Shown here: positions 16,539 to 26,956 of the stretch, piece by piece
Layout: each line of letters opens with the position of its first letter
Numbering within the stretch: the stretch's first letter is position 1
Source of the DNA: an uncultured Steroidobacteraceae bacterium
Lineage (GTDB): Bacteria > Pseudomonadota > Gammaproteobacteria > Steroidobacterales > Steroidobacteraceae
NCBI GenBank assembly: GCA_964459405.1
Contig: CAYWMY010000003.1
Span: 1-26,956, forward strand
Length of the DNA: 26,956 bases
Direction: 5' to 3'
Made by a program: the position numbers and the translations under genes
The notes under the pieces: generated by a model
Databases searched by the model: none
Seen by the model: only the letters and a program-made list of their open reading frames with translations
What the model was told of the DNA's origin: nothing

Positions 16539-18002
16539 CTACAGACCGAGCTGCGGCCAGATGCTGTCGACCCGTGCGCGCACCTCGGCCGTCATCGCGA
16601 TCGGCCGGCCCCACTCGCGCGTCGTTTCTGCGGGCCACTTGTTCGTGGCGTCGATGCCGACCTTGGAGCCCAGGCCCGCGACGGGTGACGCGAAATCGAG
16701 ATAGTCGATCGGCGTGTTCTCGATGATCACGAGATCACGCCGCGGGTCCACACGCGTGGTCATGGCCCAGACGACCTCTTTCCAGTCACGCGCATCGACG
16801 TCGTCGTCGGTCACGATCACGAACTTCGTGTACATGAACTGGCGCAGGAACGACCACACGCCCATCATCACGCGCCTCGCGTGCCCCGGATACTGCTTCT
16901 TCATGCTCACGACCGCCATGCGATACGAGCATCCTTCGGGCGGCAGATAGAAATCCACGATCTCGGGGAACTGCCGCTGCAGGATCGGTACGAACACCTC
17001 GTTCAGCGCCACGCCCAGCACCGCCGGCTCGTCAGGCGGCTTGCCCGTGTAGGTGCTGTGATAGATCGGTCTCTGGCGATGCGTGATGCGCTCGATGGTC
17101 AGGACGGGAAACCGTTCCGTCTCGTTGTAATAGCCGGTGTGGTCGCCGAACGGCCCCTCGACGGCCGTATCGTCGGGATTGATGAAACCCTCGAGCACGA
17201 TCTCCGCGCTGGCCGGCACCTGCAGGTCGTGCGACAGACAGGTCACGAGCTCGGTGCGGCTGCCACGCAGCAGCCCTGCGAAGGCGTACTCCGACAGCGT
17301 GTCCGGCACTGGCGTGACGGCCGCGAGGATCGTCGCCGGGTCGGCGCCCAGCGTCACCGCGACGGGAAACGGCTGGCCTGGATTCGCCCGCTGCCAGTCG
17401 CGGAAATCGAGCGCGCCGCCGCGATGCGCGAGCCAGCGCATGATGACGCGGTTTCGATCGATGACCTGCTGCCGGTAGATGCCCATGTTCTGGCGCGCTC
17501 TGCCGGGTCCGCGCGTGGTTACAAGGCCCCAGGTGATCAGGGGACCCGCGTCGCCGGGCCAGCAGGTCTGGATCGGAAAGCGCGCCAGATCCACGGCCTC
17601 ACCCTCCAGCACGACCTCGCGGCAGGGCCCGTCACGCCTCTCCTTCGGCGCCATGTCGAGCGCCCTGCGGAACACCGGCAGCTTGTCCCATGCGTCGCGC
17701 CAGCCGCGCGGCGGCTCCGGCTCCTTGAGCTGGGCGAGCAGCAGGCCCACCTCACGCAGTTCCGCGACCTGCTCGCGACCCAGCGCGAGCGCCACGCGCG
17801 CAGGCGTGCCGAACAGGTTGCCGAGGACCGGCACCGTGTGCCCCTTCGGCCGCTCGAACAGGAGCGCCGGACCGGCCCGCTTCAGGGTACGGTCGCAGAT
17901 CTCCGTCATCTCGAGCCTGGGGTCGACCTCGACGCCGATGCGCCGCAGTTCGCCACGTGCCTCCAACTGGCTGAGCAGGTCGCGAAGATCGGTGTATTCC
18001 AT
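16539..18002 (-). CDS. ubiD: prFMN-dependent 4-hydroxy-3-polyprenylbenzoate decarboxylase
   Basis: [45 protein letters not shown] and GIDATNK motifs, very close to E. coli-type UbiD. Confidence 0.96.
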
Positions 18003-18041
18003 GTCGTTGTTCCGGGAACCACGGTTGCAGGACCGGCAAGC

Positions 18042-19136
18042 CTACAGGAGACGCCGGCGAAATCGTCCGACCGACGCGAGCAGCAGCACGACGAAGATCG
18101 CCGTCAGCTTCAGCAGCGGCGCGACGAGTTCGTCGAGCGAAGCGTCACGCAGCGCGATGCCGCGGACAATCACATTGTAGTGCGTCAGCGGCAGGGCCTC
18201 GGCGAGCCACTGCGCGACGCGGGGCATGCCATCGAACGGGAACACCGCGCCCGACAGCAGGATCGACGGCAGCAGGAACAGCACCGCCATCTGGAACGCC
18301 TGGAACTGCGTGCGCGTCAATGTCGAGATCAGGAGCCCGTTCGCGAGCGTCGCGCTGATGAACAACAGCGTACCCAGGTACAGCTGCGGCAGCGAGCCGC
18401 GGACCGGTACGTCGAACAGCGCGGCGCCGAACCACAGGATCAGCGTCACCTGCACGAAGCCGATCAGCACGTAGGGCAGCAGCTTTCCGGCCAGCAGCTC
18501 CGCCGGAGCCACGGGCGTGCTGAGCAGGAGTTCCATGTTGCCGCGCTCGCGCTCGCGAACGACGGCTCCGGCCGCGAACACCAGCATCGTCAGCGTCACG
18601 ATCATGCCGACCAGCGCAGGCACGATCTGCACCGCCGTACGCCGCTCGACGTTGTATTCGACGCGAACCTCCATCGGCGCCACGCGATGCGTCCCCCCGG
18701 GCGCTCGCAGTACCGGCAGGGAGCCCAGCTTCAGCGCGATGCCCTCGAGGTTCGGCTGCGAGCCATCGACCAGCACGTGCAGTGCGGGCCGGTCGCCGCG
18801 CGCGAGCCGGCGCTCGAAGTCCGGCGGCACGATCACGGCGAGACCGATGGCGCCGCTGCGCAACGCCTGCATCAGCTGCCGCTCGCTCTGCGCGGCGAGC
18901 ACCGGCCGCGCCACCTGTGTGGCGGCCAGCTCGGCGACGAGCTGGCGGGAGAGCGCCGTGCGTGCCTCGTCGAATACGCCCGTCTTCAGATCGCGGACGT
19001 CGAAGTTGATCGCATAACCGAACACCACGATCTGCATGGCGGGAATGCCGACGATCATGGCGAAGGAGAGCCGGTCGCGGCCGAGCTGCCGCAGCTCCTT
19101 CCTGGCCACGGCCCACAGCCGCGACAGCCGGCTCAC
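18042..19136 (-). CDS. ABC-2 type exporter permease (YbhR/YbhS-like)
   Basis: KELRQLGRD, FGYAINFDV, VRERERGNMELLLSTPV, LLSGAVFP and PLTHY motifs. GTGA overlap with the ATPase gene. Confidence 0.9.
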   Translation of the reverse strand: MSRLSRLWAVARKELRQLGRDRLSFAMIVGIPAMQIVVFGYAINFDVRDLKTGVFDEARTALSRQLVAELAATQVARPVLAAQSERQLMQALRSGAIGLAVIVPPDFERRLARGDRPALHVLVDGSQPNLEGIALKLGSLPVLRAPGGTHRVAPMEVRVEYNVERRTAVQIVPALVGMIVTLTMLVFAAGAVVRERERGNMELLLSTPVAPAELLAGKLLPYVLIGFVQVTLILWFGAALFDVPVRGSLPQLYLGTLLFISATLANGLLISTLTRTQFQAFQMAVLFLLPSILLSGAVFPFDGMPRVAQWLAEALPLTHYNVIVRGIALRDASLDELVAPLLKLTAIFVVLLLASVGRFRRRLL

Positions 19137-20128
19137 GAGCCGTCCCCGATGAGGCGGCCCTCGCGTTCACGGAAGCCGGTCGCGGCGACGAATACATCCT
19201 CGAGCGAGGCGGAAACCCGCTCGACATGGGCATCGACGTTCGCGGCGCGAAGTGCCTGCACAACAGCATGCTCCGGCCGTTCCAGCTCGCGGCGCATCAA
19301 TACGTGCAGCCGGGCGCCGAGCTGCGCCATGCTGCGCACACCTTCGAGGGCCTGCAGCGTGGCGCGCACCACCTGCATGTCCACGGCCTCGACCTCGACC
19401 ACCGTCGCGTCGATTCCGGTCATGAGCCGCCGCGGCGCCCCCTCGGCGACGATGCGGCCGAGGTCCAGGATCGCGAGCCGGTGACAGCGCTCCGCCTCGT
19501 CCATGTAGTGTGTCGACACCAGGATCGTGGTGCCGAGCGCGGCGAGTTCGAACAGTCCCTCCCAGAAATCGCGGCGGCTCTGTGGATCGACGGCGCTCGT
19601 CGGCTCGTCGAGCAGCAGCAGTTCGGGTTCGTGCAGGGTCGCCGCCGCGAGCGCGAGCCGCTGGCGCTGGCCGCCGCTCAGCGTGCCCGCGCGCCGCCCG
19701 GCCAGCTCGACGAGCCGGTAGCGCGCCATGCGCTCGCCGACGCGGGCGTCACGCCGGGCCCTGGCAACGCCATAGATGCAGCTCATGAACTCCAGGTTCT
19801 CGCGCACCGTCAGGTCGTCCCAGAGCGAGAACTTCTGGGTCATGTACCCGAGCTTGCGTCGCACGGCATGCGCCGCGCGCGGCATCTCGTGCCCGAGCAC
19901 CCGCGCGAGGCCGGCACTCGGCGCCAGCAGGCCGCACAGTATCCTGAGCGTGGTCGACTTGCCGGAGCCGTTGGGCCCGAGGAAGCCGTAGATGTGGCCC
20001 CGCGGAATGTCGAGGTCGATACCCGCGACAGCCACCACCGGACCGAAGTGGCGCGACAGACCCCGCGCGACGATGGCAAGGCCGGGGTCGACATCCGGCA
20101 TGGCGGCAGCTGCAGCGCGGGCGCTCAT
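19133..20128 (-). CDS. ABC exporter ATP-binding subunit
   Basis: Walker A GPNGSGKS, signature LSGGQ, Walker B LLLDEPT, H-loop STHY. Confidence 0.93.
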   Translation of the reverse strand: MSARAAAAAMPDVDPGLAIVARGLSRHFGPVVAVAGIDLDIPRGHIYGFLGPNGSGKSTTLRILCGLLAPSAGLARVLGHEMPRAAHAVRRKLGYMTQKFSLWDDLTVRENLEFMSCIYGVARARRDARVGERMARYRLVELAGRRAGTLSGGQRQRLALAAATLHEPELLLLDEPTSAVDPQSRRDFWEGLFELAALGTTILVSTHYMDEAERCHRLAILDLGRIVAEGAPRRLMTGIDATVVEVEAVDMQVVRATLQALEGVRSMAQLGARLHVLMRRELERPEHAVVQALRAANVDAHVERVSASLEDVFVAATGFREREGRLIGDGS

Positions 20129-21105
20129 GGGTTGCGGGCATCATGCAGCAGGCGCACCTGCGCCGGTACGCCGACCGGCAGCGCCGCGGCTTCGCGATCG
20201 ATGAGCTCCACTTCCGTGAGGAACGCGAGCCGGGCCCGCTCGCGCTGGGTCAGCGCGTAGTACGGTGTAAACGCCGCTTCGTTGCTGACGTAGCGCACGC
20301 GCCCGCGAAAGACCCGGTCGATGCCGTCGACGCGCACCTCGGCCGGCGTGCCGATGCGCACCGCCGTGCGCCGCGGCTCGGGCACGTAGATGCGGACCCA
20401 GGGTGCGCCATCGGCGAGCAGCACGGCCACGGTGGCACCCGCGGGCGGCCGTTCGCCGCGCTCGTACGGCAGACTGTCGAGCCAGCCCGGCACCGGCGCA
20501 CGGATCTCGAGCCTGCCCGAGGTGACCTCGAGCTCCCGCACGCGCGCAGCGGCAGCGGCCTGCGCCGAACGGGCCTGATCGATCTGCTCGGCACGCGTCC
20601 CGCGGACCAGGAGACCGAGCTCGGCCTCGGCGCGGCGCAGCTCCGCCTGCGCGGCATCGCGCAGTGCCCGCTGCCGGTCGAGGTCCGCCATCGGCAGCAG
20701 CTGCTTCGCAACGACCGTACTGATGCGCGCAAATTCCTGTTCCTCGGCCAGCGCCCGGGCGCGCGCCGCGTCCAGCGCGGCGGCCGCGGCGCGGATTTCC
20801 TCGCGGCGCGGGCCCTCGATGAGCTCATCGAGTCGCTGGCGCGCCTGCGCCTCGGCTGCGCGAGCCGCCGCGAGCCGCGCGTCGACGGCCCTCCGGTCCT
20901 GCCGCAGCACGGGCTGACCCGCGGCGAGATGCGCCCCCTCACGCGCGTCGATGGCCACGATCGGCTCGGAAACCTCCGCGACGAGTTCGACACGGTCGCG
21001 CTCCAGCGTGCCGAGCAGGGCGTCATCGGGATCGCGTTCGCAGCCGGCCAGCAACGCACAGCCCAGGACGACCCCCGTCATCCGGATACTCCACCCCGGG
21101 CTCAT
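20125..21105 (-). CDS. HlyD-family periplasmic adaptor (YbhG-like), predicted lipoprotein
   Basis: Lipobox LAGC, lipoyl halves (GAHLAAGQPV, IRAPVPG), a long alanine-rich hairpin, FTPYY. Start set at ATG 21105 with GGGG upstream; the track start is 21129. Confidence 0.88.
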   Translation of the reverse strand: MSPGWSIRMTGVVLGCALLAGCERDPDDALLGTLERDRVELVAEVSEPIVAIDAREGAHLAAGQPVLRQDRRAVDARLAAARAAEAQARQRLDELIEGPRREEIRAAAAALDAARARALAEEQEFARISTVVAKQLLPMADLDRQRALRDAAQAELRRAEAELGLLVRGTRAEQIDQARSAQAAAAARVRELEVTSGRLEIRAPVPGWLDSLPYERGERPPAGATVAVLLADGAPWVRIYVPEPRRTAVRIGTPAEVRVDGIDRVFRGRVRYVSNEAAFTPYYALTQRERARLAFLTEVELIDREAAALPVGVPAQVRLLHDARNP

Positions 21106-21180
21106 CGCGCGCATCCCCTTCGTGGACACGACAGGCCTGGCGCGAACCCGGGCGGGTCACGACTCATGCACGATCGGGGT

Positions 21181-21423
21181 TCAGCTGCGCGGTGCCTCAT
21201 GATCCCGGGGTGCTGGCGGGCTGGCGTCCTCCGGGCCCGGCATCACGAACCAAAGCAGCAGGTACGCGACGATGCCGGGAAGACCGCCGGTCAGGATGGT
21301 CGCGATGGCCACCGCGACCCGCACGCGATCCTTCGGCCAGCCGAGACGTTCGGCGATGCCGCCGCAGACCCCGCCGATCATGCGGTCACGCGAACGCCGC
21401 CAGACCACATTCGCTCCGTTCAT
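21181..21423 (-). CDS. pspC: PspC-domain membrane protein (80 aa)
   Basis: WRRSRDRMIGGVCGGIAERLGW, one TM segment, and YLLLWFVMP. ATG at 21421-21423 with GGGGG upstream. Confidence 0.85.
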   Translation of the reverse strand: MNGANVVWRRSRDRMIGGVCGGIAERLGWPKDRVRVAVAIATILTGGLPGIVAYLLLWFVMPGPEDASPPAPRDHEAPRS

Positions 21424-21555
21424 CGCGATACCCCCCATGACGGATCCTGAACCCGGCAGGCCGGGCCTGTCCTGCCCGCGCTCCGGGCCCGCCCCGCCGT
21501 GGCGGCGCGGCCGGACATACAACCGCGCGCCGCGGAGGCCGCCCCGCGCGCACGA

Positions 21556-22224
21556 TCAGCGCGCGAACAGCCTCGCTGGTGAGAACGCCCGCGCGCGCGC
21601 GCGGGCATGCTCGACGATCAGCCGATAATCGCTGGTCAGAACGCGTGGATCATGCGGTGCCGGGAAAGTGGCAACCAGAGCGCCCGAAGGACCCACGACA
21701 AACAGGCTCGAGCCATGCTCGATCGTGTAAGTTCCATCCGGGCGCACGATGCGCGCATACCCCAGCCCGAAAACCTGCGCCGTACGCGAGATCGCCTGCG
21801 GCGTGCCGGTCGCGGCCAGGAATCCCGGATTGAACGACCGCACATAGGATTGCAGTCGTGCGGCGTCGTCCCGTTCCGGATCAACCGTGATCAGCAGCAC
21901 GCGCGGACGGTCGGTGGCGGGAATGTCCTGCAGCTGGCGGTCCACCTGCGCGAGCATCGCGAGCGTGGTCGGGCAGACATCCGGGCAGGCCGTGAAGCCG
22001 AAGAAGACCAGGGTCCAGTGACCCTTGAACGCGTCCTCGCCGAAGGGCCGTCCGTCCTGGTCCGTGAGCGACAGAGCCGGCAGTGCGCCCGACTCGCTCA
22101 GCAGAGAAGCGCGCACCAGGGGTGGCGGCGCGGGCGGCGAGAACAGTGCGCGCGCGGCCAGGTACCCGAGTACCGTGGCGCCGACCACCAGCACGACGAG
22201 GCGGATCACCCGTGCGGTTGTCAT
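21556..22224 (-). CDS. SCO/SenC-family copper chaperone, N-terminally anchored (222 aa)
   Basis: FFGFTACPDVCP (CxxxCP), ITVDPERD, and a conserved His in IEHGS. ATGA overlap with the hemerythrin stop. Confidence 0.92.
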   Translation of the reverse strand: MTTARVIRLVVLVVGATVLGYLAARALFSPPAPPPLVRASLLSESGALPALSLTDQDGRPFGEDAFKGHWTLVFFGFTACPDVCPTTLAMLAQVDRQLQDIPATDRPRVLLITVDPERDDAARLQSYVRSFNPGFLAATGTPQAISRTAQVFGLGYARIVRPDGTYTIEHGSSLFVVGPSGALVATFPAPHDPRVLTSDYRLIVEHARARARAFSPARLFAR

Positions 22225-22631
22225 GGCTGCGGCTGCTTCCCGGCAACGAAGCGGTGCAGGCGCACATCGAAGCTCGCGAAATGATCCCCGAACCACGCCG
22301 ACAGACGCTCCGAGAAACGGGCCTCGTCGAGAATGCCCTGCTCGCTGACCTCGTCCATGATGTCGCGGATGTCATCGAGCAGCCGCTCGTGATCCTGCTT
22401 GTGTGCATCACGCTCGGGATAGCGCATGGCCTGCATGGACTTCTCTTCCAGCGCGAAATGCGCCGAAATGCGCGCGAGGATCTCGCCGAGGAATCCCTCG
22501 ACACGCTCAGGTGAATGATCCGTGCCGAGAGCAGCGTGCAGATCGTTGATCAGCTGGATCATCTCGCGATGCTCATGGTCCACTTCGGCGATGCCGATGC
22601 TGAACCGGTCCTGCCATTCGAGCACACCCAT
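22221..22631 (-). CDS. Single-domain bacterial hemerythrin (di-iron), 136 aa
   Basis: LEWQDRFSIGIAEVDHEH, HFALEE, HKQDH and HFASFD supply the usual His/Glu/Asp ligand pattern. ATG at 22629-22631 overlaps the upstream TAA; the track start at 22868 is an extension. Confidence 0.92.
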   Translation of the reverse strand: MGVLEWQDRFSIGIAEVDHEHREMIQLINDLHAALGTDHSPERVEGFLGEILARISAHFALEEKSMQAMRYPERDAHKQDHERLLDDIRDIMDEVSEQGILDEARFSERLSAWFGDHFASFDVRLHRFVAGKQPQP

Positions 22632-24745
22632 TACCGCGTCTCCCCGCCCGACAGCGTCGCCGGCACGAGCCGACGACCGAAACTGAAGGCGTTCTCCTTG
22701 CCGCGGAAGTCGATGACGAAATTCTCGCCGGGGGTGACCGTCACGGGGGCCGAGGTCGAGTAGTCGAATCCCGATGCACGCCCGCCGTCCCGCACACGGA
22801 CCGACGCCACGTGCGTGCCGGCCGGCACGCGGAAGCGCGCATAGACCGTCGACGGCCCGTCGTCCCACAGACCCGCCGGCTGATAGGTACCCGCGTGCAT
22901 ACGCCTGCCATCCAGGTCGAACTCGACGTATACGGGCCAGCGGCCGCGTTCACAGGTCGTCGGCCGGCGCTCTTCGAACGGCAGCTTCGCAAGCTCATCC
23001 GGCGTATAGCGCTTGCAGGGCTTCAGCGGCTGACCCGCGTGGCTGAAGCTCAGTTTCACCATGGCTTCGTCACGACCGAGCAGGCCGTAGGCCGGGCGGG
23101 TCGCGAACCAGGCAATGAACACAGCGACACCCGCAAGCACGGCCACCTGTCCAGCCACCCGGAGCGGCATGAGCAGCTGCCGCGGCGTGGCATGCCAGGC
23201 CCTGCCCGTGCGCCCCCTGGTCGGCGCTCCCGCGCGCTCGCGCAGCTGCGCACGGAACTCGCGCAGCTCATGCTGCAGGCGTCGGCCCTCGACCGCCGTG
23301 GTCCAGGAGACGGCGACGCGGTCGCGATCGACACGCTCGCGCAGGTACGGGTCGCGCTCGCTCGCGATGCGCTGCTCGACCCAGCGATCGCCCAGGCGGT
23401 GGAAGCAGTCGCCCGGGGCACACCCCGCGATCAGCACGCCGTCCGCCAGTTTCTTCGAGACCGCGAAATCAATGAACGACGGCGGCAGCATGCCCACGCA
23501 GGGCGCGGCGATCACGGCGACGCCGGGGTCCCGCAGCTGTTCGGCGCGGGTCGCGGGCTCGCAGCGGAACACGAGCACACGATCCTCGCCCTGCAGCGCT
23601 CCGGCCTCGGCCACCACGCGTTCACGGAGGGCCTCGATCGGCCGGTCCCCGAGCTCGATGCCGGGCACGAGCGCGCTCGAGCGCCGGAACGGCGTGGCCG
23701 TGGGGCATGCGCCCACGCACAGGCCGCAACTCGTGCACGCGTCGGGGTCGACGCGTGCCTCCTGATCGAACGTGAGCCCGTCGCTGCGCGGTACCATGGT
23801 AATGGCGCCATACGGACAGTCCGCGAAACAGCGCCCGCAGCCGTTGCAGTTGTCCAGGTGCACCACGGCGGGGGCCGGCTTGCGCAGCGGCGGCAGCCAG
23901 GGCATCAGCGTCAGCAGCACACTGCCGCCGACCAGCAGGGCCCAGAGCGTCCGGCCGTCCAGATAATCGAGCAGCGGGTAGACCGCGAGGTAGAACCAGT
24001 CGAGCCCGACCTCGAAGGCCATACGGTCGAGGTCGGCCGGCGCCTGGCTCAGGGCCGGCACGACCAGCGACAGCAGCAGCAGCGATCCGATCACCATCAG
24101 GCTGAGCGCTCGCGGCGGGTTGACGCGCGCGTGTGCATGCCGCTGGATGTGCACCCACATCATGAGCAGCATCACCAGCGGCACGGCGATGTGGATGTAG
24201 GCCATCAGCGTAAAGAAGCGGCCGCTCAGGTGCGTGCTGTCGAGGAAGTTGCGCGCGATGGGTTCGGCGAAGATGCCGATGCTGTCCAGCCATTCAGAGG
24301 TCGTGATCGCGACGTACTGTGCGAGCGCGTCCCATGCGAGCCAGTAGCCCGTGATGCCGCTGGCGTACAGGAACCAGAGCAGCGGCACGCCCGTGACCCA
24401 GGGGAACCAGCGGTTGCCGCGCATCCGGTCGAGCGAGAACTCCCGCAGCACGTGCAGCAGCACGACGATGACCATGCCGTCGGACGCGTAGCGGTGCAGG
24501 CTGCGCATGATGCCGCCCAGATACCACTGGTCGACCGACAGCTTCTCCAGCGAGCTGTACGCCTGCGTGACACCGGTATCGAAGAAGATGTAGACGTAGA
24601 TGCCCGTGACGGCGACGATCCAGAACAGGAACCAGCCGAGCGGTCCCAGGTGCACCATGGGATTCAGCGTCGGGCCGAAGATCGCGGCGCAGAACTGTTC
24701 GAGGCGCGCGAAGAACACGCGCAATGGAGCCTTGATGAAATTCAA
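22631..24745 (-). CDS. Cytochrome b / 2x[4Fe-4S] ferredoxin / MvhD-FlpD [2Fe-2S] / membrane-anchored C-terminal domain fusion (704 aa)
   Basis: Heme-b His pairs H84/H98 and H185/H199, GYWLAWD, CNGCGRCFADCP and CTSCGLCVGACP, MvhD-like C395, C416 and GCAPGDC (C442, C447), a TM segment at about 530-549, and a beta-rich C-terminus with C577 and C598. TTG start overlaps the upstream TGA. Confidence 0.88.
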   Translation of the reverse strand: MNFIKAPLRVFFARLEQFCAAIFGPTLNPMVHLGPLGWFLFWIVAVTGIYVYIFFDTGVTQAYSSLEKLSVDQWYLGGIMRSLHRYASDGMVIVVLLHVLREFSLDRMRGNRWFPWVTGVPLLWFLYASGITGYWLAWDALAQYVAITTSEWLDSIGIFAEPIARNFLDSTHLSGRFFTLMAYIHIAVPLVMLLMMWVHIQRHAHARVNPPRALSLMVIGSLLLLSLVVPALSQAPADLDRMAFEVGLDWFYLAVYPLLDYLDGRTLWALLVGGSVLLTLMPWLPPLRKPAPAVVHLDNCNGCGRCFADCPYGAITMVPRSDGLTFDQEARVDPDACTSCGLCVGACPTATPFRRSSALVPGIELGDRPIEALRERVVAEAGALQGEDRVLVFRCEPATRAEQLRDPGVAVIAAPCVGMLPPSFIDFAVSKKLADGVLIAGCAPGDCFHRLGDRWVEQRIASERDPYLRERVDRDRVAVSWTTAVEGRRLQHELREFRAQLRERAGAPTRGRTGRAWHATPRQLLMPLRVAGQVAVLAGVAVFIAWFATRPAYGLLGRDEAMVKLSFSHAGQPLKPCKRYTPDELAKLPFEERRPTTCERGRWPVYVEFDLDGRRMHAGTYQPAGLWDDGPSTVYARFRVPAGTHVASVRVRDGGRASGFDYSTSAPVTVTPGENFVIDFRGKENAFSFGRRLVPATLSGGETR

Positions 24746-25536
24746 TGTACGTTCCGCCAGGAAAGGACGATGGCAACGCCCACCATGCCGAGTGCAAGCA
24801 CTCCCGCGACGATCTCCATGATGAGCGAGGGATCGAAGCGATACTTGCCGCTCGCTGGATCATAGATGGTACACAACAGCTTGACCGAGCGGACGAGGTC
24901 GGACAGCGACCCTCGCTCGAGCGCCTGGCCGCGGATCAGCTGCTTCAGCGGCTCGACGAGCGCGGGCGGCCGGAGGTCCTGCCCGTAGACCTGCAGCGCG
25001 ACACGTCCGCCGGGGTCGATGACCGTGGTCTGGATGATGTGATCGAAACCCTTGGGCGACGCCTTGTAGCTGAAACCCACGTCGCGCATGAGTCTCTCCA
25101 TGGTCGCGGCGTCGGTGCTGGCGAAGATCCAGTCGGGCGTCACGACGCCGCGTTCCCGGGCGTAGAGACGCATGCGCTCCGGCGTGTCGTTCGGGGTGTC
25201 GAAGCCCACCGTCAGTACCGTGAAGCTCCCCGGCCCCAGTGCCTGCCGCGCAAGCTTCACGACCTCGCGCAGGTTCACGGTCAGCCCGGAGCAGATCGCA
25301 TAGCAGCTCGTATAGACAAGGCTCAGCACCACCGGCCTGCCGCGCAGTTCAGCGAAGCTGAACCGCGTGCCATCAGCGTCGATCAGCGCATGGTCACCGA
25401 CGACCCGGCCGATCGCCGCCTGGCTCGCGGCCAGTTCGGGATTCTCCGTGACGGGCACGGACCGGGCCGCAAGCAACGGCAGCAACCACAGCGCTGCAAC
25501 CACGGCCGCCCGGAATCTCGTTTGCACTGAAGGCAT
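24742..25536 (-). CDS. SCO-family protein with a signal peptide and a C-terminal TM anchor (264 aa)
   Basis: YTSCYAICS (C78xxxC82), TVGFDTPNDTP, His in GFDHII, and CTIYDPASGKY before a C-terminal hydrophobic helix. Confidence 0.87.
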   Translation of the reverse strand: MPSVQTRFRAAVVAALWLLPLLAARSVPVTENPELAASQAAIGRVVGDHALIDADGTRFSFAELRGRPVVLSLVYTSCYAICSGLTVNLREVVKLARQALGPGSFTVLTVGFDTPNDTPERMRLYARERGVVTPDWIFASTDAATMERLMRDVGFSYKASPKGFDHIIQTTVIDPGGRVALQVYGQDLRPPALVEPLKQLIRGQALERGSLSDLVRSVKLLCTIYDPASGKYRFDPSLIMEIVAGVLALGMVGVAIVLSWRNVH

Positions 25537-25920: not shown

Positions 25921-26956
25921 TCACTTCAGCGGCCAGATCTCGGCCACGTACTTCCAGTTGACGAAGTAGTACAGCACGAAGGAGACGAAGAACACGCCCA
26001 CGAGGACCACGGTACCCGGGATGTACAGCGTGCCCTGGTTGCCGTAGCTCGCGACGGCCGCCGCGGACTTGGCGCCGCTCACAGGCCCCAGTTGCACGGC
26101 CTCCTTGTCACCGATCTTGCGGCCGAACAGCACCGTGCAGACAACGGTTACGACGTACATCGCGCCGCCCAGAGCCGCCATGATCGCCGAGATGCCGTTC
26201 AGCGCCAGCATCAGGAACGCCGCCGGCGAGTACTGGAACTGCGTCAGCGCATCGGCAAAGGTGATGTCCCAGTGCCGCCGCGGCACGCCCAGCGTGCCCG
26301 CGCCCATCATGAACAGCGAGATTCCCGCCGCGCCGAGCCCGAAGATGTACGGCTGCAGCTTGGCCACCGTCGGGAAGATCACCTCACGACGGAAGATCAG
26401 CGGCAGGACGAGGTACGTGATCGCCATGAAGGCGAGCGTCGTACCGGTCACGACCGTCGCATGGAAGTGACCCGGCACGTAGAGCGTGTTGTGCATCGTC
26501 AGGTTGATCTGCTCCGTTCCGAGCACGACGCCCGTGATGCCGCCCAGGAAGCCGAAGTACACGAGCGACATGAACATGCCCGAGAACGCCGGGTTGCCCC
26601 ATGGCGCCTTGCGCAGCCACTCGAACAGGCCCTTCGTGTAGCCCTTGGCGCGCTGCGCGGCCTCGATCGCGCCCGGCACGGTCATGCCGTGGATCATGCT
26701 GCCCATGACCGCCAGGTACATCGCATAGCTGGTATTGAAGATCTTCCAGCTCGAGCTGACACCCGGCTCCGCCAGCAGGTGGTGCGCGCTGGCGAGCTGC
26801 AGGAACAGGATGTACATCAGGTAGGCCGCACGGCTGACCTTCTCGGAGATCGGCTTGGCGCCCAGCACCATCGCACCGATGGCGTACCACACGGCCACGT
26901 GGGCCGAGACGTTGATCTGCTGGGAGGAATGGCCCATGGCCCACCACACCAGCTTG
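25921..26956 (-). CDS. Heme-copper oxidoreductase subunit I, B-family-like fold with Tyr-to-Gln active site (putative eNOR-type nitric oxide reductase), 5'-truncated
   Basis: The frame is open to the window edge (KLVWWAMGHSSQQIN...). CuB/FeB ligands: H at 26929-26931 and SAHH at 26779-26784. HNTLYVPGHFH (26461-26493) matches the ba3-type HNT..VPGHFH, and the VPRR arginine pair is present. The residue at His+4 is Gln, not Tyr. Confidence 0.85.
   Translation of the reverse strand, partial: KLVWWAMGHSSQQINVSAHVAVWYAIGAMVLGAKPISEKVSRAAYLMYILFLQLASAHHLLAEPGVSSSWKIFNTSYAMYLAVMGSMIHGMTVPGAIEAAQRAKGYTKGLFEWLRKAPWGNPAFSGMFMSLVYFGFLGGITGVVLGTEQINLTMHNTLYVPGHFHATVVTGTTLAFMAITYLVLPLIFRREVIFPTVAKLQPYIFGLGAAGISLFMMGAGTLGVPRRHWDITFADALTQFQYSPAAFLMLALNGISAIMAALGGAMYVVTVVCTVLFGRKIGDKEAVQLGPVSGAKSAAAVASYGNQGTLYIPGTVVLVGVFFVSFVLYYFVNWKYVAEIWPLK

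Follow-up and report, generated by a model that had tools for sequence, protein, structure and literature searches.

The residue at the position of the cross-linked active-site tyrosine is diagnostic among heme-copper oxidoreductases, being Tyr in the oxidases, Glu in the cNOR and qNOR nitric oxide reductases, Asn in sNOR and Gln in eNOR (PMC8756737, Table A4, after Hemp & Gennis 2008). The eNOR family (Hemp & Gennis 2008; Murali et al. 2024, PMC11214002) has CuA subunits, a K-like channel and, in some members, His/Lys heme ligation; its characterised member is that of Rhodothermus marinus, and the purified enzyme reduced NO at 0.68 per second and did not reduce O2 (PMC11214002). The 'cytochrome a1-like' protein of Magnetospirillum has been assigned to the same family (PMC11214002). 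Here, a stretch of 26,956 nucleotides from an uncultured Steroidobacteraceae bacterium (assembly GCA_964459405.1, contig CAYWMY010000003.1, positions 1 to 26,956; hereafter the window) was analysed computationally. The window most probably ends inside the subunit I gene of an eNOR-family nitric oxide reductase, that is, of a two-subunit, CuA-containing enzyme derived from B-type oxidases.

The 3' part of this gene occupies positions 25921..26956 of the minus strand. Translation from 26955 to 25921 gave 344 codons followed by a TGA stop at 25921-25923, and the translated fragment begins KLVWWAMGHSSQQINVSAHVAVWY... / KLVWWAMGHSSQQINVSAHV. It was assigned to the Pfam family COX1 (heme-copper oxidoreductase subunit I, E 1.6e-33) and was found to be 99% identical to P0001, a homolog of 566 amino acids whose numbering is used below unless stated otherwise. 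The reading frame stays open past the window end, such that approximately 222 N-terminal residues, including the helix II heme ligand, lie outside the window.

The translation and an alignment with the ba3 oxidase of Thermus thermophilus placed the motif H-S-S-Q-Q on helix VI (26917..26931, minus strand), with the codons for His at 26929-26931, Ser at 26926-26928, Ser at 26923-26925, Gln at 26920-26922 and Gln at 26917-26919. In a phmmer search of PDB (E ~1e-28) the residues GH-SSQQ paired with GH-PIVY of ba3, which contains H233, V236 and Y237. The helix VI His is thus the counterpart of the metal ligand H233, while the Gln at His+3 stands at the O2-channel residue Val236 and the Gln at His+4 at the cross-link residue Tyr237 (ba3 numbering). 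The register of this alignment is confirmed by the fact that several of the matching PDB entries are V236 variants. In cNOR, the FeB-ligand Glu occupies this His+4 position. An H-H pair on helix VII (26779..26784, minus strand), equivalent to ba3 H282/H283, was identified as the other two CuB/FeB ligands, and an H-F-H motif on helix X (26461..26469, minus strand) supplies the high-spin heme with its proximal ligand and the low-spin heme with one of its ligands. All six canonical His ligands are therefore present, H231, H280, H281, H385 and H387 in the window and H69 in P0001 and its contig, L088. A preliminary description of the window, made from the letters alone, had read the helix as GHSSQQ with both the Val and the Tyr replaced by Gln, had regarded the other metal ligands in view as intact, and had remarked on the absence of the H-x3-E motif of cNOR and qNOR; each of these readings agrees with the codons, the translation and the ba3 alignment, the His+4 residue being Gln and not Glu.

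The best sequence matches in PDB were T. thermophilus ba3 and the B-type oxidase of Aquifex aeolicus, with E-values of ~1e-43 to 1e-45 for the full-length homolog P0001, and no cNOR or qNOR chain was found among the PDB sequence matches even at E <= 10. The PDB library, with releases up to April 2026, contained no eNOR structure, and no NCBIfam model reached its cut-off for subunit I or subunit II. When the full-length homolog was modelled with AlphaFold2 (pLDDT 83, pTM 0.88), the first fold matches were B-family oxidases (TM-score 0.75-0.81), followed by A-family enzymes, and the 50 matches listed included neither cNOR nor qNOR.

Homologs of at least 480 residues were sorted by their helix VI motif into 289 sequences with H-x-x-Q-Q (QQ), 14 with H-x-x-Q-Y (QY) and 14 with the canonical B-family H-P/A-x-V-Y, and three further Tyr-retaining homologs with His at His+3 formed a separate divergent group. 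Both Q234 and Q235 proved to be invariant in 289/289 QQ-type homologs, which are 41-100% identical to P0001, so that the GHSSQQ motif cannot be attributed to chance. The helix VII HH pair was likewise invariant (288/288 QQ sequences), and the last position of H-F-H was His in 267 and Lys in 22 members of the QQ clade, Thermus and HR23 members being among those with H-F-K, which corresponds to the His/Lys heme ligation described for some eNORs (PMC11214002). Since the Tyr-retaining QY relatives also carry Gln at His+3, that residue is not diagnostic and only the Gln at His+4 marks the switch.

The relationships among these sequences were studied in a tree built by neighbour joining only, from 37 sequences and 537 columns with 200 bootstraps and with no A- or C-family outgroup. 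The QQ sequences were monophyletic with 100% bootstrap support, the QY sequences formed a basal grade (76% for QQ and QY together), and the canonical B family stood separately. Besides the window-like protein, the QQ clade contained a gene from a Defluviimonas plasmid (70% identity), genes from Thermus plasmids and sequences of Thermomicrobium roseum, Chloroflexi and a haloarchaeon. A further member, P0334, is the Thermus protein WP_015717644.1, which is named as part of the published eNOR alignment (PMC8756737). The earlier proposal that Gln at this site denotes eNOR is thus upheld by the published marker and by the clade shared with a published eNOR sequence, and its placing of the Magnetospirillum protein in that type matches the literature assignment; as a marker, however, the Gln pair it relied on holds for His+4 and fails for His+3. 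We infer the NO-reductase activity of the window enzyme from family membership and from one assayed homolog; the metal at its active site (Fe or Cu), its heme type and its proton uptake are likewise predictions.

The nearest sequences outside the QQ clade were archaeal H-x-x-Q-Y homologs (35-43% identity), which have in common with it the His+3 Gln, Asn237, Ser308 and His311, but keep the His+4 Tyr and lack both Tyr299 and a polar residue five positions before the HH pair. Among the sequences in the grade just below the QQ clade are P0131, P0132, P0134 and P0149, from Hodarchaeales and Thermoproteota metagenome-assembled genomes (MAGs), among others. Such a grade agrees with the statement that 'K-family' oxidases cluster with eNOR (10.1101/592808). 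These archaeal homologs may be 'K-family' oxidases and a plausible picture of the transition from oxidase to nitric oxide reductase.

The three divergent Tyr-retaining homologs with His at His+3 (P0184, P0194 and P0222, for example from a Dehalococcoidia MAG) resemble heme-copper oxidoreductases. They display F-H-V-N-H-Y on helix VI, and have Tyr in place of the first CuB His (L-Y-H) and of the heme a3 His (G-Y-F-H or A-Y-L-H).

The 5' part of the operon was studied in two related contigs. L088, the contig of P0001, shares 1068 bases with the window at 99.4% DNA identity, which indicates the same population, and it holds the full subunit I gene and so supplies the part missing from the window. 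L002 is a Steroidobacteraceae MAG contig with 96% protein and ~80-89% DNA identity and the same gene layout. Directly 5' of subunit I, beyond the window end, L088 encodes a subunit II of 181 amino acids with a complete CuA site, and the first gene of the operon encodes a 56-aa membrane peptide like ba3 subunit IIa. The CuA motif of subunit II in L002 and L088 reads H-x34-CNEYCGLGHHTM, i.e. H-x34-C-x-E-x-C-x3-H-x2-M, and was kept in 83/85 relatives. The same number (83/85) keep Glu20 of subunit II, which is situated at the start of the membrane helix like Glu15 of ba3 subunit II.

Other family assignments could be set aside. For a B-family O2 reductase the motif H-P-x-V-Y with its cross-linked Tyr would be expected and H-S-S-Q-Q was found. 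The T. thermophilus and A. aeolicus ba3 enzymes share with the present system a IIa-like peptide, a CuA subunit II and the residues of a single K-type channel, but the identity is only ~24-30% and ba3 T312 is replaced by His. The cNOR and qNOR enzymes have Glu where Gln is found here, and the partner subunit is a CuA cupredoxin rather than a cytochrome c subunit or a fused quinol domain. The chemistry proposed here, 2 NO to N2O, is like theirs and the His+4 Gln is the amide analogue of their FeB-ligand Glu; nevertheless, those enzymes derive from the C family, use a cytochrome c subunit or a quinol site, have no CuA and are unrelated at the subfamily level. By the published residue criteria (PMC8756737 Table A4, PMC11214002), sNOR and bNOR (Asn), nNOR (Glu) and gNOR (Asp for a ligand His) do not fit either, the residue being Gln and all three His being present. 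Finally, the name given by NCBI, a C-family (cbb3) oxidase, is contradicted by Leu instead of Tyr on helix VII and by partners that are a CuA subunit II and a IIa-like peptide, not CcoO/CcoP.

Alignment with ba3 further identified the residues of a K-type channel (26680..26886, minus strand). The channel Tyr at 26884-26886 corresponds to ba3 Y248, the Ser at 26845-26847 to S261, the Ser at 26698-26700 to S309 and the Thr at 26680-26682 to T315, while a His at 26689-26691 takes the place of T312 and ba3 Y244 is replaced by Val. Three of the positions, Y246, S308 and H311, were invariant across the QQ clade. These features would be compatible with a mechanism in which a periplasmic donor reduces CuA of subunit II and electrons pass to the low-spin heme (His69 and His387, full-length numbering) and then to a binuclear site consisting of the high-spin heme (His385) and a non-heme metal on His231, His280 and His281, where two NO would be converted to N2O. 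With Gln at the Tyr237 position, there would be no His-Tyr cofactor to supply the fourth electron for O2 reduction. Protons would probably be taken up through the K-type channel, from Glu20 of subunit II and then by Thr, Tyr, His and Ser of subunit I, and uptake by this route would make NO reduction electrogenic.

The genome scan matched more than 582 genomes, and the neighbourhood counts cover the best 80 of these relatives (69-87% identity), which are almost all MAGs of Alpha- and Gammaproteobacteria and include Woeseiaceae, Steroidobacteraceae, Rhodospirillaceae and Hyphomicrobiales. The operon order in these loci is IIa, II, I, heme o synthase (62/80 genome loci), SCO, cytochrome b-FeS-FlpD and hemerythrin. 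The portion II-I-heme o synthase-sco1 matches the order of the eNOR operon of Ferrigenium straubiae (II, I, heme o synthase, sco1); in Ferrigenium under denitrifying conditions, eNOR transcripts top those of its heme-copper enzymes and the proteome includes the eNOR protein (10.64898/2026.01.22.701106). The most frequent neighbour from outside the operon was nirS, detected within 10 kb in 19 of the 80 loci (tblastn, D1 domain), and the others were a Crp/Fnr regulator (17 loci), NosR-like (10), NirE (10), NirJ-like (9), NirD/L (9) and CtaA (5) genes. For NnrS-like genes, a cluster-based count of 18 loci is an upper bound, a single tblastn query having confirmed 2. In total, a gene of N-oxide metabolism was present within 10 kb in only 26/80 relatives. 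In 50/78 loci a TTGA-N6-TCAA box of the CRP/FNR type was found 59-215 nt 5' of the IIa gene, where 0.008 per 250 nt would be expected, and the stricter TTGAT-N4-ATCAA with at most one mismatch was found in 34/79 loci. In the window lineage, the stretches upstream of the operon (L088:1772-2134 and L002:8950-9257, beyond the window end) carry the palindrome TTGAC-N4-GTCAA at -92 and -90, respectively, from the IIa start.

Several observations weigh against the eNOR reading. The tree was computed without the R. marinus and M. magnetotacticum sequences and without curated heme-copper oxidoreductase models, so it has no direct link to a characterised enzyme; Rhodothermus and Magnetospirillum were also absent from the best 80 relatives of the genome scan, and a second homolog search with the Thermus protein as seed returned Thermus, Armatimonadota and Chloroflexi and no Rhodothermus. 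The turnover of R. marinus eNOR cited above is low. The heme o synthase gene, present in most relatives, is missing from the operon in the window lineage (window, L002 and L088), and in this the lineage differs from the described family, as it does in having feoA and feoB divergently transcribed upstream of the operon in L088 and L002, an arrangement seen only in this lineage. The nir, nos and nor genes were absent from the 27-kb window and from the 10 kb upstream in the closest relatives (including L002). Lastly, a clade-specific tyrosine, Y299, lies nine residues into helix VIII (residues 290-325) and roughly at the depth of the metal ligands in the predicted model.

One interpretation of the missing nir and nos genes, of the sparse N-oxide genes near the relatives and of the low turnover of the assayed enzyme is that the protein belongs to the eNOR family but is not the respiratory NO reductase of a denitrification chain. 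External NO might be detoxified, or another substrate might be handled jointly with the cytochrome b-FeS-FlpD and hemerythrin proteins, the accessory genes being conserved and without a known function; detoxification or other substrates were explicitly left open in PMC8756737. Such a role appears unlikely, however, given that nirS and the heme d1 genes are the commonest neighbours from outside the operon, that a CRP/FNR-type box is typical of denitrification genes, and that Ferrigenium eNOR is expressed under denitrifying conditions and reaches the proteome (10.64898/2026.01.22.701106). The preferred reading remains an eNOR-family NO reductase, although the window itself does not show a denitrification capacity of this organism, and NO reduction would follow from family membership. 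The suggestion of an NO reductase with hidden denitrification capacity in the preliminary description is accordingly supported in its first half, and its second is not shown for this genome. A look at the upstream flank, which that description had recommended, yielded the expected CuA subunit II in L002 and L088, but neither a heme o synthase nor a CtaA gene within the operon of these two contigs or of the window.

The helix VIII Tyr (26725..26727, minus strand) bears on a second alternative, namely that the enzyme is still an oxygen reductase in which a Tyr from another helix replaces the cross-linked Tyr, as in cbb3. Position 299 was Tyr in 288/288 QQ sequences, V, I or L in the 14 QY sequences and A, T, F or V in the B family, and a polar residue (Gln, Asn, Thr or Ser) five positions ahead of the HH pair was confined to the QQ clade. 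The residue is thus invariant where the canonical Tyr is lost and absent from the Tyr-retaining sister sequences, and its depth in helix VIII is close to that of the HH ligands. An oxygen reductase is nevertheless highly improbable. The Tyr site of cbb3-type enzymes, located on helix VII and six positions ahead of the first of the two HH ligands, is occupied by Leu or Ile; no migrated Tyr was found in eNOR sequences or models, and no O2 reduction was seen with purified R. marinus eNOR (PMC11214002); furthermore, the operon neighbours and their regulation point to N-oxide metabolism. That the gene is a decaying, non-functional copy of a ba3-type oxidase, as the loss of the catalytic Tyr and the incomplete gene might suggest, is refuted by sequence conservation: the gene is cut by nothing but the end of the window and is complete in L088, the operon is conserved, the QQ motif and all metal ligands are invariant over 289 sequences from more than 582 genomes, and the dN/dS of the window fragment was 0.055 against L002 and 0.10-0.13 against two 87%-identical relatives, demonstrating that purifying selection acts on the subunit I gene.

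Downstream of subunit I, the window contains, in order, genes for a SCO-like protein, a 704-aa fusion protein, a hemerythrin, SCO1, PspC, an HlyD/ABC/ABC-2 transporter and UbiD. The SCO1/SenC-like protein (24742..25536, minus strand; Pfam SCO1-SenC, E 4e-10) was present in 82/88 sequences compared, its gene kept adjoining that of subunit I or cyoE, and the product carries a CYAIC motif between an N-terminal signal or anchor and a C-terminal anchor. The fusion protein (22631..24745, minus strand), present in 75/88, was defined by Pfam, NCBIfam and motifs. It comprises a di-heme cytochrome b domain (H84/H98 and H185/H199), two CxxCxxCxxxC [4Fe-4S] motifs, an FlpD/MvhD-like domain and one further membrane helix, and its C-terminal domain of ~150 aa had no family match in Pfam or NCBIfam. 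Its only homolog among 72,556 plasmids adjoins the Defluviimonas eNOR and is there split into two genes. The start of the bacteriohemerythrin gene (22221..22634, minus strand; Pfam Hemerythrin; in 73/88) overlaps the stop of the fusion gene, and the L002 ortholog scored above the NCBIfam bact_hemeryth cut-off. This partner brings to mind NorA, a hemerythrin-like protein of Ralstonia and Cupriavidus whose gene lies next to norB. A second SCO1/SenC gene with the canonical CPDVC motif (21556..22296, minus strand; Pfam E 2e-37) probably has its true start near 22224; it occurs in a minority of related operons, with matches in 20/88, many of which are weak or fall on the first SCO gene.

Accessory genes of this kind were called 'rather unusual' in the Ferrigenium preprint (10.64898/2026.01.22.701106), whereas the cytochrome b-FeS-FlpD and hemerythrin genes are the rule in this proteobacterial clade. 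The clade agrees with the published description of eNOR in having Gln where the cross-link Tyr would stand, three His that bind the metal, a subunit II with a CuA site, residues like those of a K-channel and the gene order II-I-(heme o synthase)-sco1; that description does not mention the fusion and hemerythrin genes. We put forward, tentatively, that the eNOR of Alpha- and Gammaproteobacteria might be part of a larger, undescribed and dedicated module with the hemerythrin and SCO proteins and the fusion, whose C-terminal domain is membrane-anchored. In such a module, NO reduction could be connected through the fusion to the quinone pool or to a donor or acceptor in the cytoplasm, O2 or NO could be buffered by the hemerythrin, and Tyr299 could be a new catalytic or proton-donating residue that appeared as the cross-link Tyr was lost.

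The genes following the operon, for PspC, an HlyD-like adaptor, an ABC ATPase, an ABC-2 permease and UbiD (16539-21522, minus strand), were found after it only in this lineage (4/88 sequences) and are probably unrelated to eNOR. Further unrelated genes of the window are hemC, a LytS/LytTR pair, amt, a ComM-like gene, a DEAD helicase gene and corA.

Two other gene arrangements were observed among the homologous loci. On the Thermus thermophilus plasmid pTthSNM6-6b (L005, 6182-14678), the eNOR genes stand among those for a NirK-like multicopper protein with a C-terminal cupredoxin and a cytochrome c, and their neighbours also include genes for a TIGR04053 radical SAM/SPASM protein, a cytochrome P460 and an Rrf2 regulator and a short RIC-like (DUF542) gene. 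The eNOR operon has a second and highly divergent COX1-like gene less than 10 kb away in L049 (5977-7374) and in four more of the related loci; the L049 product has 465 aa, displays G-H-I-L-Q-F and H-Y-H, and had no NCBIfam match.

Publications of 2008 to 2024 had already described the eNOR family with its marker residue and activity, and the gene described here is a new, mis-annotated proteobacterial member and not a new kind of enzyme. The leads that go beyond the cited literature are Tyr299, which is specific to the clade, and the conserved partner genes for the cytochrome b-FeS-FlpD fusion and the hemerythrin. As the preliminary description had anticipated, annotation pipelines label such genes cytochrome c oxidase, with the GO term 'aerobic respiration', and they are consequently missed by genome surveys as sources of N2O; about a quarter of the closest 80 relatives adjoin nirS. 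For the window, the annotation is corrected, and NO reduction becomes a prediction that can be tested.

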